This document shows, one piece after another, positions 11,221 to 18,112 of a DNA stretch of 18,112 bases (its first letter is position 1; each line of letters starts with the position of its first letter). This DNA comes from a virus. Below the pieces are notes generated by a model. That model saw only the letters and a list, made by a program, of their open reading frames with translations. It had not been told where the DNA came from and made no database searches. Both the position numbers and the translations under genes were made by a program. The stretch lies in the UHGV virus genome UHGV-0337628; one strand, written 5' to 3'.

Positions 11221-11744
11221 TTTCCGAATAGAGTGCTCATCGGTGATGTTTCAATCTGGATTGCGCCGCCGTCTTTGCCTGTTAATTCGTGAGAAGCTTG
11301 TTCTTTAAACGCCTGAACAGAAACATGCTTACCAAGAAGTTCGAGGTTTTTAACCTTATCAGGCCATTTGATTTTCTTCAGAAGTGCGGCGCTATCTGCG
11401 GATACCATCTCCACGACATCCATTCCTGATAGCGTTGTGCGCCATACCTTAGGCCAGTCTTTAATTGGCTTTAACTCGCCGTTTTGCAGGAGAATGTCGA
11501 GCACATCCATCTGGTCGATTTCAATAAGGCGATTAAGTACATATTCTGCATTAATACCAACAAGATCATTGCGTTGCGCTTTCAGTTCGGAGATTCTTAA
11601 CTTGATATCAGGTTTTGACAGGTTTTCGGATGCGGTACGGTTAGCTGTCTTTGCGCTGTACCCCGCCCGAATAGCCGCTTGCGTGGCATTTAAATCGATG
11701 AGGTACTCGCGACAGAACATTTCTTGTTTGTCGGTGAGTGCCAT
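11217..11744 (-). CDS. terminase small subunit
   Basis: 175-aa ORF immediately upstream of and overlapping the large subunit gene; N-terminal helix-turn-helix-like region (MALTDKQEMFCREYLIDLNATQAAIRAGYSAKTA) typical of small terminases. Confidence 0.8.
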   Translation of the reverse strand: MALTDKQEMFCREYLIDLNATQAAIRAGYSAKTANRTASENLSKPDIKLRISELKAQRNDLVGINAEYVLNRLIEIDQMDVLDILLQNGELKPIKDWPKVWRTTLSGMDVVEMVSADSAALLKKIKWPDKVKNLELLGKHVSVQAFKEQASHELTGKDGGAIQIETSPMSTLFGK

Positions 11745-11770
11745 TTTTTACTTCCCATAAGGAGATTGTT

Positions 11771-11953
11771 ATGAACGATGACTTTAAAACAGGTGACATT
11801 GTTAAACTGAAATCAGGCGGACCTGACATGACTATCAGGTCATTTTCATCTACCCACGGTAACTCTTTTCTTTGTCAATGGTTTGCTGGCAAGAAGCTTG
11901 AGCAAGGATATTTCAAACCGGAATCTCTTGAGCGCGTTACCCCAAAGCCATAG
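11771..11953 (+). CDS. DUF2158 (YodC-like) family small protein, 60 aa
   Basis: ATG at 11771 with a strong AAGGAG Shine-Dalgarno 7 nt upstream; product MNDDFKTGDIVKLKSGGPDMTIRS... carries the GDxVxLKSGGPxMT signature I associate with DUF2158/YodC. The track's 11738 start is an in-frame upstream extension lacking a ribosome-binding site. Confidence 0.7.
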   Translation: MNDDFKTGDIVKLKSGGPDMTIRSFSSTHGNSFLCQWFAGKKLEQGYFKPESLERVTPKP

Positions 11954-11997: not shown

Positions 11998-12237
11998 ATG
12001 ATGTCCGTTTTATCAACAGAGGGTTGCCTTTATCAGCAGGATGTTGTGGATTATCTCGTTAAACAACATAACGAGCAGCACCTCAAAGAAAATGCGGATG
12101 GCAACCAAGCGATATCAACAAAAGTGATTAATAAATTCAGGGTTGATAGCGGTGAAAGTGTTGTTTGGGTTAAGCCAGATAAGTACTGGCGTTTCCGTGT
12201 GCCTGAAGACGAAAACGGTCGTGAAGCTCGCGGTTAA
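11998..12237 (+). CDS. hypothetical protein, 79 aa (second gene of the plus-strand cassette)
   Basis: ORF with protein-like composition (...VVWVKPDKYWRFRVPEDENGREARG); same strand as and 44 nt downstream of the DUF2158 gene; followed by a hairpin. No clear Shine-Dalgarno, so lower confidence. Confidence 0.45.
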   Translation: MMSVLSTEGCLYQQDVVDYLVKQHNEQHLKENADGNQAISTKVINKFRVDSGESVVWVKPDKYWRFRVPEDENGREARG

Positions 12238-12312: not shown

Positions 12313-12555
12313 TCATGCTCCGGTAGTGAACAGGTCTAACGCTTCCTTCGATTTACGCACCGCTTCGATAGTGCGGGTCGTGATATCCGAATTAGCGCCG
12401 CCTGACTGGAAGTGAATTTTGAATAGCTCAAGCTTCAGCTCGTCAGTGCCAATGAATTGAAATGCTTCTTCTGCGGCTGCGTTCTGGTTCATGACCAGTT
12501 TGTAAATCTCTAACTGGAATTTCTGTTCTTCAGTCATGGGAATAATCTCTGCCAT
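12313..12555 (-). CDS. hypothetical protein, 80 aa
   Basis: ORF with GGAG Shine-Dalgarno 6 nt upstream of the ATG at 12555; acidic, helix-prone product (MAEIIPMTEEQKFQLEIYKLVMNQNAAAEEAFQF...); family not recognised. Confidence 0.5.
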   Translation of the reverse strand: MAEIIPMTEEQKFQLEIYKLVMNQNAAAEEAFQFIGTDELKLELFKIHFQSGGANSDITTRTIEAVRKSKEALDLFTTGA

Positions 12556-12849: not shown

Positions 12850-13137
12850 CTACTTCTTCAGAAATGATTCGATGAACTCACGCCGGGGATGACGATAGTT
12901 CAGAATATCTTCTGGCATCCTCATAAAGCGGTTGTTGCCGTCTTTGGCAGTAACGAAACAGCTGTGAACTCCGCAGACATCCGTTTTGATCGTGTCGCCA
13001 TACTCAAAAAGCAACTGCGCCATCTTCTCTTGCCATTCTTGCGGCATAGCCTCCATGAATACTCTCGGCATCACGCAGAACGACGCATGCGTCAGGCCAA
13101 ACCACAATTGCAGGTCTTTACGATATTCTTCATCCAT
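12850..13137 (-). CDS. hypothetical protein, 95 aa
   Basis: Internal ATG at 13137 preceded by AAAGG 8 nt upstream and by a terminator hairpin; product MDEEYRKDLQLWFGLTHASFCVMPRVFMEAMPQEW... The track's 13257 start is a TTG and would read through the hairpin. Family not recognised. Confidence 0.5.
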   Translation of the reverse strand: MDEEYRKDLQLWFGLTHASFCVMPRVFMEAMPQEWQEKMAQLLFEYGDTIKTDVCGVHSCFVTAKDGNNRFMRMPEDILNYRHPRREFIESFLKK

Positions 13138-13152
13138 CGTCTTTACCTTTGT

Positions 13153-13181
13153 TGCAATAAAAAGCCCCGCGAATGCGAGGC
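13153..13181 (-). terminator. intrinsic terminator-like hairpin downstream of Rz, immediately upstream of the 95-aa ORF
   Basis: Minus strand GCCUCGC-AUUC-GCGGGGC (7-bp G/C-rich stem, one G-U pair, 4-nt loop) followed by UUUUUAUUG. Confidence 0.55.
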
Positions 13182-13356
13182 TAAATCCTGGTATTTGTAA
13201 TGATCTGGCTCTTATCTCAACGCAACCCCTTACTGCGCGCCAGATGCTCAATATCAAGCATCAGCAATGAGATGTTTAATCTGGATTCACTCCAGAAGCG
13301 ATCACCACCCTGTCTACAGAGCCAGATGTGAAGGATGATGAGTAAAATTATCGCTA

Positions 13357-13824
13357 TCATCGAAGGCATTGCGTCCTGATGTATTCCTGAAGCGTTCTCA
13401 GTGCTGTTTGGTCGCGGATAATTCTGTCCCGGATACCGAGAACGTTTCGTCCAGCAACTGGAGAGAGTTCGACGGTGGCATCATTGCCCATGCCGGAGGC
13501 GCTGGAGGTTTCGTCTGAGGATGGCACAGGGCATTTTCCTTTGACGAGCACCCTGCCACCATTATCAAGCTTCCGCCGAAGAGCATCATTTTCAGCTTTC
13601 GCATCAGCTAACTCCTTCGTGTATTTAGCATCAAGTGCATCAGCATCACGCTGGCGCTGCTGCATGTCAGTAATGGTGGCGGTCGCCTGCTTCAGCTCAC
13701 TGACTTTTTTATCGCGCTGTTCTTTGTAGGTAATGGCGTTATCACGGTAATGATTAACAGCCCATGATAGGCAGACGATGATGCAGATAACCAGAGCGGA
13801 GATAATCGCGGTTACTCTGCTCAT
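13357..13824 (-). CDS. Rz: spanin inner-membrane subunit (i-spanin) Rz
   Basis: 155 aa; N-terminal transmembrane segment and first ~85 residues match my recollection of lambda Rz ([34 protein letters not shown]...[13 protein letters not shown]), then the C-terminal half diverges; start overlaps the R stop. Confidence 0.85.
13398..13604 (-). CDS. Rz1: spanin outer-membrane lipoprotein subunit (o-spanin) Rz1, embedded in the +1 frame of Rz
   Basis: ATG at 13604 with AAGGAG Shine-Dalgarno; product [23 protein letters not shown]... has a signal peptide and lipobox (VAGC) and a Pro-rich stretch, like lambda Rz1; entirely inside Rz. Confidence 0.7.
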
Positions 13825-14297
13825 ACCTCAATCTCTCTGACCGTTCCGCCAGCTTCTTTGAATTTTGCAATCAGGCTGTCAGCCTTATGCTCGAACTGAC
13901 CATAACCAGCGCCCGGCAGTGAAGCCCAGATATTGCTGCAACGGTCGATTGCCTGACGGATATCACCGCGATCAATCATCGGTAAAGCGCCGCGCTCTTT
14001 AATCTGCTGCAGTGCAACAGCGTCCTGGCTTTTGGGAGAGAAGTCTTTCAGGCCAAGCTGCTTACGATAGGCATCCCACCAACGGGAAAGAAGCTGGTAA
14101 CGTCCGGCTGCTGTTGATTTGAGTTTTGGGTTTAGCGTGACAAGTTTGCGAGGGTGATCGGAGTAATCAGTGAATAGCTCTCCGCCTACAATGACGTCAT
14201 AACCATGATTTCTGGTTTTCTGACGTTCGTTATCAGTTCCCTCTGACCACGCCAGCATATCGAGGAACGCCTTACGTTGATTATTGATTTCCACCAT
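13821..14297 (-). CDS. R: endolysin, lambda R-type lytic transglycosylase
   Basis: 158 aa; [23 protein letters not shown]...[23 protein letters not shown]... is essentially lambda R as I remember it; start overlaps the holin gene. Confidence 0.9.
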
Positions 14298-15186: not shown

Positions 15187-15223
15187 CCCTCTAATTATGG
15201 CTAAATGGCTAATTGCATGTCAA
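15187..15223 (-). promoter_or_regulatory. candidate sigma-70 late promoter (pR-prime analogue) overlapping the Q stop codon
   Basis: Minus strand TTGACA (15223..15218), 18-bp spacer, CATAAT (15199..15194). The -35 hexamer lies inside the last Q codons and the -10 directly after the TAG stop. Predicted start ~15187, only a few nt before the terminator hairpin. Confidence 0.4.
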
Positions 15224-15719
15224 GGCTTTTAACAGCAACATGCTTAACTTTCTCAACACGTTTACGCATTTTGAAAGCATTTTGCATTGGTTGGTACAAA
15301 ACAAATAATGACGCTTTCAGGATATCGTCAATTTCGTTTCTACAGGTTGCCAGTGAAGGTTTTCTCCATCCCTCGCCACCACGCCCACACATCTTGCGTG
15401 GCTTTGCAGTCGCGTGATAGTAGGATGCAATTGCTCGCTTAGATGAACCATGAGCGTAGTAGCTGAGGAGGATGCCAAAGGCTTTCTTGTCAATGTACAT
15501 GACGGAATCGACGACCTGAGAAATCAACATTCCATCATCATCATTACACATTGGCCTTGTCATAACTCTTCCCGGCTCTACGCTCTCCATGAACTTCGCT
15601 ATTACGCTGCTCATGCGCTTTTCCAGGCGACCTGAATAAACCCATGCGCCCCACAGTTCAAGCCAGCCATTCAGCCACTCGTGCTGTTCTTTGGTGAGGT
15701 TTAGTTCTCTTATGCTCAT
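15201..15719 (-). CDS. late-gene antiterminator Q, P22 gene 23 type
   Basis: 172 aa; motifs WLELWGAWV and RPMCNDDDGMLI resemble the LERWGAW and RPQCCDDDAMI motifs I recall from P22 gp23-type Q proteins; immediately upstream of the late promoter/terminator and lysis genes; start overlaps the NinH stop. Confidence 0.7.
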   Translation of the reverse strand: MSIRELNLTKEQHEWLNGWLELWGAWVYSGRLEKRMSSVIAKFMESVEPGRVMTRPMCNDDDGMLISQVVDSVMYIDKKAFGILLSYYAHGSSKRAIASYYHATAKPRKMCGRGGEGWRKPSLATCRNEIDDILKASLFVLYQPMQNAFKMRKRVEKVKHVAVKSLDMQLAI

Positions 15720-15904
15720 CGCCTTCCCCTTTTGCCCTGTTTGACCATCAGGACGCCGTTAACTATTACGTGACGTTCGCCTTTGCTGTCTCGGTTGTAC
15801 TTGAGCACCGTTCCTCTTGCGCAGGAAAGCATCCTCGCCACTTCGGTCTGATTGCCTCGTGTCTGGATAAGAAGCTCTGGTATCGTTTGAATTGTGGCGT
15901 TCAT
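15716..15904 (-). CDS. ninH: NinH-like small DNA-binding protein
   Basis: 62 aa; ...TIPELLIQTRGNQTEVARMLSCARGTVLKY...HVIVNGVLMV aligns with lambda NinH (...KTIPDMLVEAYGNQTEVARRLKCSRGTVRKY...HAIVNDVLMV) as I recall it. Confidence 0.75.
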   Translation of the reverse strand: MNATIQTIPELLIQTRGNQTEVARMLSCARGTVLKYNRDSKGERHVIVNGVLMVKQGKRGRR

Positions 15905-16263
15905 ACGTTCTCCAGTTCGGTGATTTTTATTCCAAGCCTTCCGCCTGGTACTTTCACACCACGAATTACGCGAATGTCATCGAATTGCTCGTCGTCTTCC
16001 GCAAATCCGGCGTGGATAAGGGAGTCGAGTAAACCCTTCAGGATGTTATCGAGGTCGCGGCGGCGGGAGTCTGGAACGTCTGCGATGACTTTGATGCGGA
16101 GTCGTGATTTGGTGAAAATGTCTAACTTGAGTTGGCGGATGATTTGCTGAACGTCTTTTCGGTATTTCTGGCCTTTATCGCTGATGTAGTATTGGCTTCC
16201 CCGTCTTCGCCAGTAGGTGTTCACCGACGGCGGGTAAGGAAGCACAAACTGATATTCGTTCAT
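15901..16263 (-). CDS. rusA: Holliday junction resolvase RusA
   Basis: 120 aa; conserved ...DVPDSRRRDLDNILKGLLDSLIHAGF...DD...GGRL... motifs match E. coli RusA (120 aa) as I recall it; sits in the nin region where lambdoid phages carry either Rap or RusA. Confidence 0.85.
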   Translation of the reverse strand: MNEYQFVLPYPPSVNTYWRRRGSQYYISDKGQKYRKDVQQIIRQLKLDIFTKSRLRIKVIADVPDSRRRDLDNILKGLLDSLIHAGFAEDDEQFDDIRVIRGVKVPGGRLGIKITELENV

Positions 16264-16550
16264 GGCTTAATCTTCCCCTCCTTCAGCAGGATCGCCTGCG
16301 TCCTGATCACGCCTTCCAGGTGGTAAAGTCTGGCGTCTTTGTTGTCGAGGTTATGGGTGCGTCGGTCGATTTCATCGTGACACGCGCTACAAGCCCATGC
16401 GCCGATCAGGTCGTCAGGCTTCATTCCCGTTCCGCAAATTCCAGCCATCCGGTAATGTGCCAGAACTGTAGTTTCAGGATTGCCATTGCATACGCCGTAA
16501 ATACGTACCTGACATTCTCTGCCGCGCGCTTCTTTGCGTAGGTTAGCCAT
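16260..16550 (-). CDS. YbcO-like (DUF1364) Cys-rich protein
   Basis: 96 aa with several Cys pairs (CQVRIYGVCNG, CSACHDE); position directly upstream of rusA as ybcO is in the E. coli DLP12 prophage; family assignment from memory. Confidence 0.5.
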   Translation of the reverse strand: MANLRKEARGRECQVRIYGVCNGNPETTVLAHYRMAGICGTGMKPDDLIGAWACSACHDEIDRRTHNLDNKDARLYHLEGVIRTQAILLKEGKIKP

Positions 16551-17272
16551 TAAGCAGCCTCCCCTGTTACTTTCAGCATTCCGTTATCGAGCAGCTTTCT
16601 GGTCAGCCACTGTTGACCACGCCCGGTGATTTTTGTGGTGAACGATATCTGTATTCCGTGATTTGTGTTGACCGCTGTTTCTTTCACTGTGAAATAGCCG
16701 CGATCCATATATTCCTGCATTGGCACATTTCGCCGGGAACCTGAAGCAATAAGGATTTTGTGATCGCGCATCCATGCAAACAGTTTGTTTGGACCAATAC
16801 CGACAACCTTTGCAAAGTTTCCAATCAAAATTCCGCTGGCCTCGCCAACGCGATCGGCAAACTCAACTTTAGGTGCGGCAATTGCGAGCTGGTTTTCCAG
16901 TTGCATTTTCTGCTCAGCAAGATCAGCAGCAAGGCGCAACGCTTCTGGTAGCGTTTTGGGGATATTAACCGCAGCTTCTTCAAGCTCTCGCCAACGGTCA
17001 ACAAGACGAGCGGTGAATTCCGGCGACAACTGAGCGACGACAATAATGCTGTCTCGCTTACCTTGTTCGCCCTCAAAAACGTAAGCCTCTACGCCACGAA
17101 GTAATCCTAAGTTATTGATTTTTTCGAAAACCACCATTGGGGGATTTCGGATCACACCTCGAGCCGCCATTCGTTCAATAGATTGTTTCACCTTGTCATG
17201 ACGACTTCCCACCAACTCAGAGATTTCAATGCTTGTCATTTTGATGGCATTGCCATTTATTAACTCATTCAT
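16550..17272 (-). CDS. phage antirepressor / regulatory protein (Rha-like N-terminal region, KilA-C/ANT-type C-terminal domain)
   Basis: 240 aa; N-terminus ...MTSIEISELVGSRHDKVKQSIERM... is Rha-like; C-terminal half resembles antirepressor KilA-C domains; GGAAGAAG upstream of the ATG at 17272. Confidence 0.6.
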   Translation of the reverse strand: MNELINGNAIKMTSIEISELVGSRHDKVKQSIERMAARGVIRNPPMVVFEKINNLGLLRGVEAYVFEGEQGKRDSIIVVAQLSPEFTARLVDRWRELEEAAVNIPKTLPEALRLAADLAEQKMQLENQLAIAAPKVEFADRVGEASGILIGNFAKVVGIGPNKLFAWMRDHKILIASGSRRNVPMQEYMDRGYFTVKETAVNTNHGIQISFTTKITGRGQQWLTRKLLDNGMLKVTGEAA

Positions 17273-17435
17273 CGTCTTCTTCCTCGTGCATCGAGCTATT
17301 CGGATCGCTCATCAGTTCTGCGCAGCAGTGCTCACACACGTGAACTTCCAGCACATGCAGCTTCTGACCGCAGTTAGCGCACGTTAAAGCTCGCTCGACA
17401 CTTCCTTGTTCGTAACTTCGATTTTGGTCAATCAC
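17265..17435 (-). CDS. ninF: NinF-like protein (56 aa, GTG start)
   Basis: Hand translation of the minus strand gives [56 protein letters not shown], matching lambda NinF (...[46 protein letters not shown]) as I recall it. No in-frame ATG; GTG at 17435 with AGGAAAA upstream. Below the track's 60-aa cut-off. Confidence 0.7.
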
Positions 17436-17614
17436 CTTGTTTTCCTCGCACGTTCTCTAAGCCACCGGATATCCCATAGGTGAGCCGTGTAGTTGAAGGT
17501 TTTTACGTCAGATTCTTTTGGAATTGGCTTGCGTTTATTTCTGGAGCGCTTCGTTGGAAGGTATTTGCAGTTTTCGCAGATTATGTCGGTGATACTTCGT
17601 CGCTGTCTCGCCAC
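17432..17614 (-). CDS. ninE: NinE-like protein (60 aa, GTG start)
   Basis: Track ORF whose start codon is GTG (plus 17612-17614 is CAC), preceded by AGGAGG 4 nt upstream; basic product with a CENC motif; position immediately upstream of NinF as in lambda. Identity to lambda NinE rests on order and size, not on remembered sequence. Confidence 0.55.
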
Positions 17615-17754
17615 ACGTCCTCCTTTTCCTGCGGTAGTGGTAACACCCCTGTTGGTGTTCTTTCACATCGGAGACACCATCGATTCCAGTAAGGTTGATT
17701 TGGTCGGAAGCGGTTATCTTCTTTGCATTCACCGCACCGATAACATCGCATCAT
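17581..17754 (-). CDS. small zinc-ribbon protein, 57 aa (NinD position)
   Basis: Hand translation: [57 protein letters not shown], with a CxxC...CxxC pattern; ATG overlaps the stop of the upstream gene (ATGA) and GGGAGGGA lies 8 nt upstream; 57 aa as for lambda NinD. Overlaps the NinE start by 34 nt; below the track cut-off. Confidence 0.5.
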
Positions 17755-18112
17755 GCAGCTTCCCTCCCGAAGTCGAAATCAAGCTGCCCTCCAAATATTT
17801 CGCATGACTCAGAACAAGAGCCGGTATCGAATCTTTTAGCTCGTACCATGTCCTGATACAGGGCTTGATAATCATTTTCTGAATACATTTTCGCGATACC
17901 GTCCAGCGACATTCTTCCTCGGTACATAATCTCCTTTGGCGTTTCCCGATGTCCGTCACGCACATGGGATCCCGTGATGACCTCATTAAAAACACGCTGC
18001 AATCCCTCCTCATCTTTGCAGGCAAGTCCGATTTTTTGCGTTGATTTTTTAATGCAGAATATGCAGTTACCGAGATGTTCCGGTATTTGCAAATCGAATG
18101 GTTGTTGCTTCC
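17751..18112 (-). CDS. hypothetical nin-region protein; partial, N-terminus lies beyond the window end
   Basis: The frame stays open from the stop at 17751 to at least codon 18108-18110 (...[22 protein letters not shown]...[12 protein letters not shown]). The track's start at 18092 is a TTG. Family not recognised. Confidence 0.5.

Follow-up and report, generated by a model that had tools for sequence, protein, structure and literature searches.

Lambda-type ninD, ninE and ninF genes in a P22-like Escherichia coli prophage

Three small genes correspond to ninD, ninE, and ninF of phage lambda

Three short genes on the minus strand of the virus genome UHGV-0337628, analysed here over its whole stretch of 18,112 nt (the window), are near-identical copies of the long-known ninD, ninE, and ninF genes of phage lambda (Table 1). 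The DNA that carries them is 97.6% identical to lambda positions 41904-42434, and at the protein level the identity is 57/57 residues for NinD, 57/60 for NinE, and 54/56 for NinF. We consider it almost certain that the genes belong to a lambda-type ninR module carried by a P22-like E. coli prophage of the CUS-3/HK620/Kapi1 type. The finding itself is ordinary and already known, with the nin genes having been part of the lambda sequence since 1982, and the description of the overlapping nin gene chain is credited to Kroger and Hobom (1982, Gene 20:25).

In RefSeq lambda, ninD occupies positions 41950-42123, ninE 42090-42272, and ninF 42269-42439, and the lengths, start codons, and 34-nt overlap of ninD with ninE (lambda 42090-42123) match those in the window. 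A preliminary description of this DNA had proposed the same three identities, and the alignment with the lambda proteins upholds them, with the same starts and gene lengths. It had described a 57-aa frame with a CxxC...CxxC pattern in the NinD position, which we find with its CxxC motifs at residues 4-7 and 27-30; a NinE-like frame with a GTG start behind an AGGAGG, which is present with that site 4 nt upstream; and a 56-aa NinF homologue with a GTG start and the C-terminus ...MHEEEDDE, which is present as well. Its statement that all three genes are shorter than 60 aa and were missed by the ORF track holds for ninD (57 aa) and ninF (56 aa) but not for NinE, which is 60 aa long and already appears in the default list. 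The ORF listing that we used for the window extends down to 20 aa.

Table 1 Features in and around the ninD-ninE-ninF chain (window coordinates).
Feature	Position	Strand	Description
ninC 3' part	17751..18112	-	PAPS-reductase-like; leaves the window at its end
ninD	17581..17754	-	57 aa, ATG start; small Cys4 zinc-ribbon-type protein
ninE	17432..17614	-	60 aa, GTG start; very basic, predicted helical
ninF	17265..17435	-	56 aa, GTG start; small zinc-ribbon-type, acidic tail
ninD/ninE dual-coding overlap	17581..17614	-	34 nt, out of frame
AGGAGG Shine-Dalgarno-like site	17619..17624	-	4 nt upstream of the ninE GTG
GTGA, ninF start over ninE stop	17432..17435	-	Read from the sequence
ATGA, ninD start over ninC TGA	17751..17754	-	Read from the sequence
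Roi-like antirepressor, ANT/KilAC	16550..17272	-	240 aa; Pfam ANT PF03374, 113 bits
Third-frame ORF, 65 aa	17535..17732	-	Spurious; no family match, frame broken in relatives

Each protein exceeds the gathering score that serves as the cut-off of its Pfam family. NinD matches PF17466 with 140.4 bits against a cut-off of 35 (E = 1.8e-41, 57/57 profile positions), NinE matches PF05322 with 150.1 bits against 25 (E = 1.5e-44), and NinF matches PF05810 with 47.5 bits against 27.5 (E = 1.6e-12). The corresponding PHROG matches are 8091 for NinD, 288 and 32968 for NinE, and 672 for NinF. NCBIfam gave no passing match; NinE scores 35.1 bits, over residues 24-59 only, against the 88-bit cut-off of NF007245 (PRK09689), and it is a member of the lambda-type branch that lies outside this subfamily model. 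PGAP/RefSeq annotation also calls NinD, NinE, and NinF in syntenic E. coli prophages. Immediately upstream, the part of ninC inside the window encodes 119 aa that are 100% identical to residues 172-290 of lambda NinC, and the RefSeq annotation of the syntenic prophages agrees. The three families are mostly limited to prophages of Enterobacteriaceae and comprise 12 (NinD), 126 (NinE), and 102 (NinF) clusters at 90% identity. The best match in the search for NinD representatives, a protein of 803 aa, was rejected as spurious, being repetitive and free of cysteine.

Start codons and gene junctions

The preliminary description had assigned GTG starts to ninE and ninF. Lambda uses the same codons, and the conserved N-termini cannot be reached from any other start. 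In both genes, no possible start lies between the in-frame stop and the GTG, and no later start is possible because the residues from Q3 onward in NinE and from Y8 onward in NinF are nearly invariant. Among 82 comparison loci and the window, ninE begins with ATG in 76/83 and with GTG in 7/83. Where ninD is present, the A/G change that switches the ninE ATG to GTG leaves NinD unchanged, since it falls on the third position of a valine codon (GTA/GTG) there. A site resembling AGGAGG precedes the ninE start in several unrelated upstream contexts, including one in which a Dam methylase gene replaces ninD. On sequence evidence, the GTG start of ninE is well supported.

The junctions of the chain had been given as ATGA and GTGA overlaps. 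Both are present, but the junction between ninD and ninE, which went unmentioned, is a 34-nt out-of-frame overlap and not a 4-nt one. The 8-nt overlap of the 3' end of ninF with the antirepressor start is as claimed (17265..17272). In the 82 loci and the window, the ninE/ninF junction reads GTGA in 80/83 and ATGA in 3/83. At least four different genes are found upstream of ninD, and in all contexts the TGA of the preceding gene and the ninD ATG share the sequence ATGA. From ninC to the antirepressor, the stop/start overlaps run ATGA, 34 nt, GTGA, and 8 nt, a conserved succession of the kind looked for in a coupled chain. This conservation suggests translational coupling, in which ribosomes ending one gene would re-initiate at the next overlapping start. 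Translation of the three genes would take place in lytic growth, on the long rightward early transcript extending towards Q.

The window ninD begins with two adjacent ATG codons, and initiation at the second of these, instead of at the first over the ninC stop, would give a NinD of 56 aa. PGAP annotates a 171-nt ninD in the syntenic E. coli T28R prophage, and the 56-aa NinD cluster P0006 has 134 member sequences. However, the first ATG is the one used in RefSeq lambda, and the P22-like NinD (MKHCYRC...) has an ATG at the first position only, always as ATGA over the upstream stop. We regard initiation at the second ATG as unlikely, and the resulting protein would differ by one methionine, leaving the finding unaffected.

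Genomic context and mosaic joints

The window as a whole matches the P22-like coliphages CUS-3, HK620, and Kapi1. The order of genes around the chain is that of a ninR module, with ninC upstream and with the antirepressor, YbcO, RusA, NinH, and Q following downstream on the same strand, where the holin, Rz/Rz1, and terminase genes are also found; the replication genes lie beyond the window. Scans of the window for Rfam families and tRNAs found nothing.

With lambda (NP_040636, NP_040637, NP_040638), the window shares the order of the three genes, their lengths of 174, 183, and 171 nt, the ATG/GTG/GTG starts, the overlaps of 4, 34, and 4 nt, and the presence of ninC upstream, at identities of 100%, 95%, and 96%. 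The rest of the phage is P22-like and not lambda-like. Homology to lambda ceases 5 nt before the ninF stop, at the Roi-like antirepressor, and therefore a mosaic joint lies at this gene boundary. Because the homology ends there, the last residue of NinF is E in the window and G in lambda, and the stop codon is TGA instead of TAA. What follows ninF differs accordingly between the two phages: the window has the Roi-like antirepressor with its 8-nt overlap, whereas lambda has ninG/rap with an 11-nt overlap.

P22-like Salmonella phages (BTP1, epsilon34, ST160) carry the same families in the same order, with the 34-nt overlap and a NinD tail ending ...DSDEVSPT, at ~83 to 88% DNA identity to the window. 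Unlike the window, they start ninE with ATG, their NinD begins MKH and does not have C10, and ninX often stands between ninE and ninF. Phages of the mEpX2/HK022 type share the downstream half of the arrangement, namely ninF, the Roi-like antirepressor, a YbcO/DUF1364-type (HNH/YbcO-like) gene, RusA, NinH, and Q, and the mEpX2 counterpart of the antirepressor is annotated as similar to HK022 Roi. In mEpX2, however, ninD is a longer frame of 83 to 89 aa, an unrelated 133-aa ORF replaces ninE, and ninC is absent.

Further joints are seen among the relatives. In most of the IMG/VR relatives (e.g. loci L004 and L005, 917..1683), the gene upstream of ninE is not ninD but encodes a Dam-type N6-adenine methyltransferase (PF05869, 218 bits). 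DNA similarity between these Dam-type loci and the window begins 7 nt inside ninE, and therefore a mosaic joint lies at the ninE start. Another joint among the relatives falls at the ninE/ninF boundary.

In several relatives (L005 1680..2389; also L022, L039, L040, L049, L054, and L061), ninF is interrupted at codon 36 by an AT-rich insert of 543 nt that carries a gene for a 168-aa HNH_3 endonuclease (70 bits). With a cysteine codon contributed by the insert, the second CxxC is rebuilt as CERC, giving a new NinF variant of 59 aa, and the former C-terminal coding piece persists downstream, out of use. This 59-aa variant is common in the protein clusters, P0107 having 147 members. We rejected an intron or intein as an explanation for the insert: its 543 nt replace 4 nt, which is not a multiple of three, and the HNH ORF of 507 nt occupies nearly all of it.

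Selection on the reading frames and alternative explanations

For the comparison of reading frames, 80 IMG/VR loci found with NinE, together with lambda and mEpX2 (82 in all), were projected onto the window; these sequences are related and non-independent, most being >90% identical, and the counts that follow do not represent independent events, although they all point the same way. Codon-position conservation in relatives had been proposed earlier as a check on the three genes, and variation does concentrate at the third positions of the claimed frames. Variable columns at the third position, compared with the other two, number 28 versus 8 and 15 in ninD, 23 versus 4 and 3 in ninE, and 16 versus 9 and 4 in ninF. 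The synonymous fraction of codon differences over the whole ORFs is 0.52 for ninD, 0.89 for ninE (211 synonymous versus 25 non-synonymous differences), and 0.51 for ninF, compared with 0.05 to 0.33 for rival frames on either strand, and the antisense ORFs also carry stops. Across the 82 loci, there are 0 premature stops in the claimed frames and many in the other two frames. Among the other distinct sequences, stops or frameshifts were found in 0/10 for ninD, 0/43 for ninE, and 0/22 for ninF. These are the observations that could have gone against the preliminary description: none of the three frames is interrupted by a stop or frameshift in any relative, and the rival 65-aa frame discussed below is not the conserved one. 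The ninD/ninE overlap is the least variable segment, with 4/34 columns varying versus 51/140 in the part that belongs to ninD only. Judged by these substitution patterns, the ninD, ninE, and ninF frames are the ones under purifying selection.

An antisense frame is open over ninE in the window (17480..17692, plus strand) and reaches up to 174 aa in some relatives (L004 1111..1635, minus strand). It was rejected as a gene, having 7 synonymous versus 137 non-synonymous differences over the ninE part.

The stretch could instead have a mainly regulatory purpose as the site of nin-region transcription terminators, with the ORFs being secondary. The lambda nin region does hold terminators, whose deletion gives N-independence (PMC5630979), and the record of phage O276 has a terminator annotated under the match. 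A consensus scan, however, found no terminator-like hairpin within 17265..17754, where promoter-like matches number 1 compared with 1.9 expected by chance; the window gave no match to Rfam, and the substitutions follow a coding pattern. A terminator could also coexist with the genes without replacing them. We consider a mainly regulatory role very unlikely, and the reading as translated genes is preferred.

Alternatively, the ORFs could be inherited but non-functional, untranslated passengers of the prophage kept by recent descent from lambda-like phages. Under laboratory conditions the nin genes can be dispensed with (PMC10695390; PMC5630979), and the relatives are mostly very similar, so that intactness is partly a matter of shared ancestry. 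In a CRISPRi study of lambda, ninF was essential alone but non-essential once a plasmid supplied Q, while ninD and ninE are listed as non-essential from earlier work and stood outside the screen because they do not have PAM sites (PMC10695390). Transcriptome data from a lysogen of the related phage Kapi1 likewise showed no expression of ninE or ninF (PMC12922286), but such silence in a lysogen is expected of lytic-phase early genes. A re-analysis of lambda ribosome profiling makes no mention of the nin genes. Against the three ORFs being passengers stand the third-position excess and the high synonymous fraction, above all in ninE, and frames that stay intact down to ~83% DNA identity and ~58 to 62% protein identity. 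In unrelated upstream contexts, too, the start codons and ribosome-binding sites persist, and the CxxC was rebuilt where the HNH endonuclease gene landed inside ninF. That the ORFs are mere passengers is highly improbable, and we continue to treat ninD, ninE, and ninF as functional genes.

There is next to no chance that the 65-aa ORF is a real gene and the ninD and ninE frames accidental: although it is longer than ninD or ninE and is listed by a mechanical ORF finder, it carries premature stops in 9/14 distinct relatives, has 50 synonymous versus 228 non-synonymous codon differences (fraction 0.18), with variation across its span avoiding its third codon positions, has no match in Pfam, PHROG, NCBIfam, or PADLOC, and is used in no public annotation examined (lambda, mEpX2, syntenic E. 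coli prophages), so that the earlier suspicion that it is spurious proves correct. As a matter of quality control, a 60-aa length cut-off combined with a bias towards ATG hides genuine conserved phage genes, and length cut-offs can promote a spurious longer frame in place of real small genes. In phage L, automatic annotation missed ninD, which was later added by hand.

Properties and possible roles of NinD, NinE, and NinF

The three proteins have calculated pI values of 6.2 (NinD), 11.0 (NinE), and 4.5 (NinF). In NinD, cysteines C4, C7, C27, and C30 are kept in the variants found among the loci and in 17/18 distant small relatives, the exception having M at position 4. The second CxxC is followed by a (T/S)PxGxxP motif, which reads TPTGVLP in the window, and neither C10 nor the tail that overlaps ninE is conserved. 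NinF has an invariant C34, retains C19 and C22 in at least 90%, and carries a fourth cysteine at position 37 or 38, after which comes the acidic tail. An AlphaFold2 model of NinF shows a helix, a knuckle, and a second helix with moderate confidence (pLDDT 66). From their cysteine patterns, NinD and NinF resemble small zinc ribbons of the Cys4 type, and each would fold around one Cys4 zinc site and bear an acidic tail.

NinE would be a basic two-helix protein that does not bind zinc. Its AlphaFold2 model (mean pLDDT 76) has helices at residues 7-17 and 33-58 joined by an invariant basic PTKRSRNK segment, and the invariant residues P19, T20, R24, K26, and L45 are all present in the window. A zinc-binding NinE was considered and rejected, since a 58-aa branch from Enterobacter and Salmonella has M/I and L/M at the positions of its only two cysteines, C13 and C16.

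No function for NinD, NinE, or NinF is reported in the papers and family libraries that we searched. Fold searches against the PDB with the AlphaFold2 models gave only generic zinc-finger/RING matches for NinF (E >1) and none for NinE. A sequence profile search of the PDB returned nothing for NinE and only small zinc proteins at chance level for NinF (ShdD, E = 0.011), and the PADLOC defence models gave only chance-level matches of NinF to Cas12 zinc ribbons. In a yeast two-hybrid study, the partners of NinD, NinE, and NinF are mostly single, unverified hits, while the M-NinF and NinD-K pairs were each found in two vector combinations (PMC3224144). A tentative suggestion, made with low confidence, is that the three proteins serve as dispensable accessory factors, binding either nucleic acid or protein partners and modulating DNA metabolism or the interaction with the host; the fold searches brought up no significant structural analogue for this guess at function. 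More doubtful is the narrower idea that NinD, NinE, and NinF might form one small-protein module directed at a specific target, either in the DNA metabolism of host or phage or in host defence. If such a conserved module did exist, strong selection would be keeping the dual-coding overlap of ninD and ninE and rebuilding the zinc site of NinF after insertion of the homing endonuclease gene.

Other small genes in the window

Several other small genes lie elsewhere in the window. Two ORFs on the minus strand have no Pfam match at E <= 0.01: one of 158 aa (13821..14297), in the endolysin position between holin and Rz, and one of 135 aa (12850..13257), downstream of Rz. The Rz1 lipoprotein gene (13398..13604, minus strand; PF06085, 75.6 bits) is contained out of frame inside Rz (13357..13824, minus strand), and embedding of Rz1 within Rz is the usual arrangement of spanin genes. 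NinH, another short gene near the 60-aa cut-off, encodes 62 aa (15716..15904, minus strand; PF06322, 85.7 bits) and shares 4 nt with each of its neighbours, rusA (15901..16263) and Q (15201..15719). On the opposite strand, flanked by the lysis genes on one side and the small terminase gene on the other, are genes for a DUF2158 protein (71 aa; 11738..11953, plus strand) and a DUF6953 protein (79 aa; 11998..12237, plus strand), adjoined by a DUF2560 gene (12313..12555, minus strand). The DUF2158/DUF6953 pair looks like an inserted accessory ('moron') cassette.
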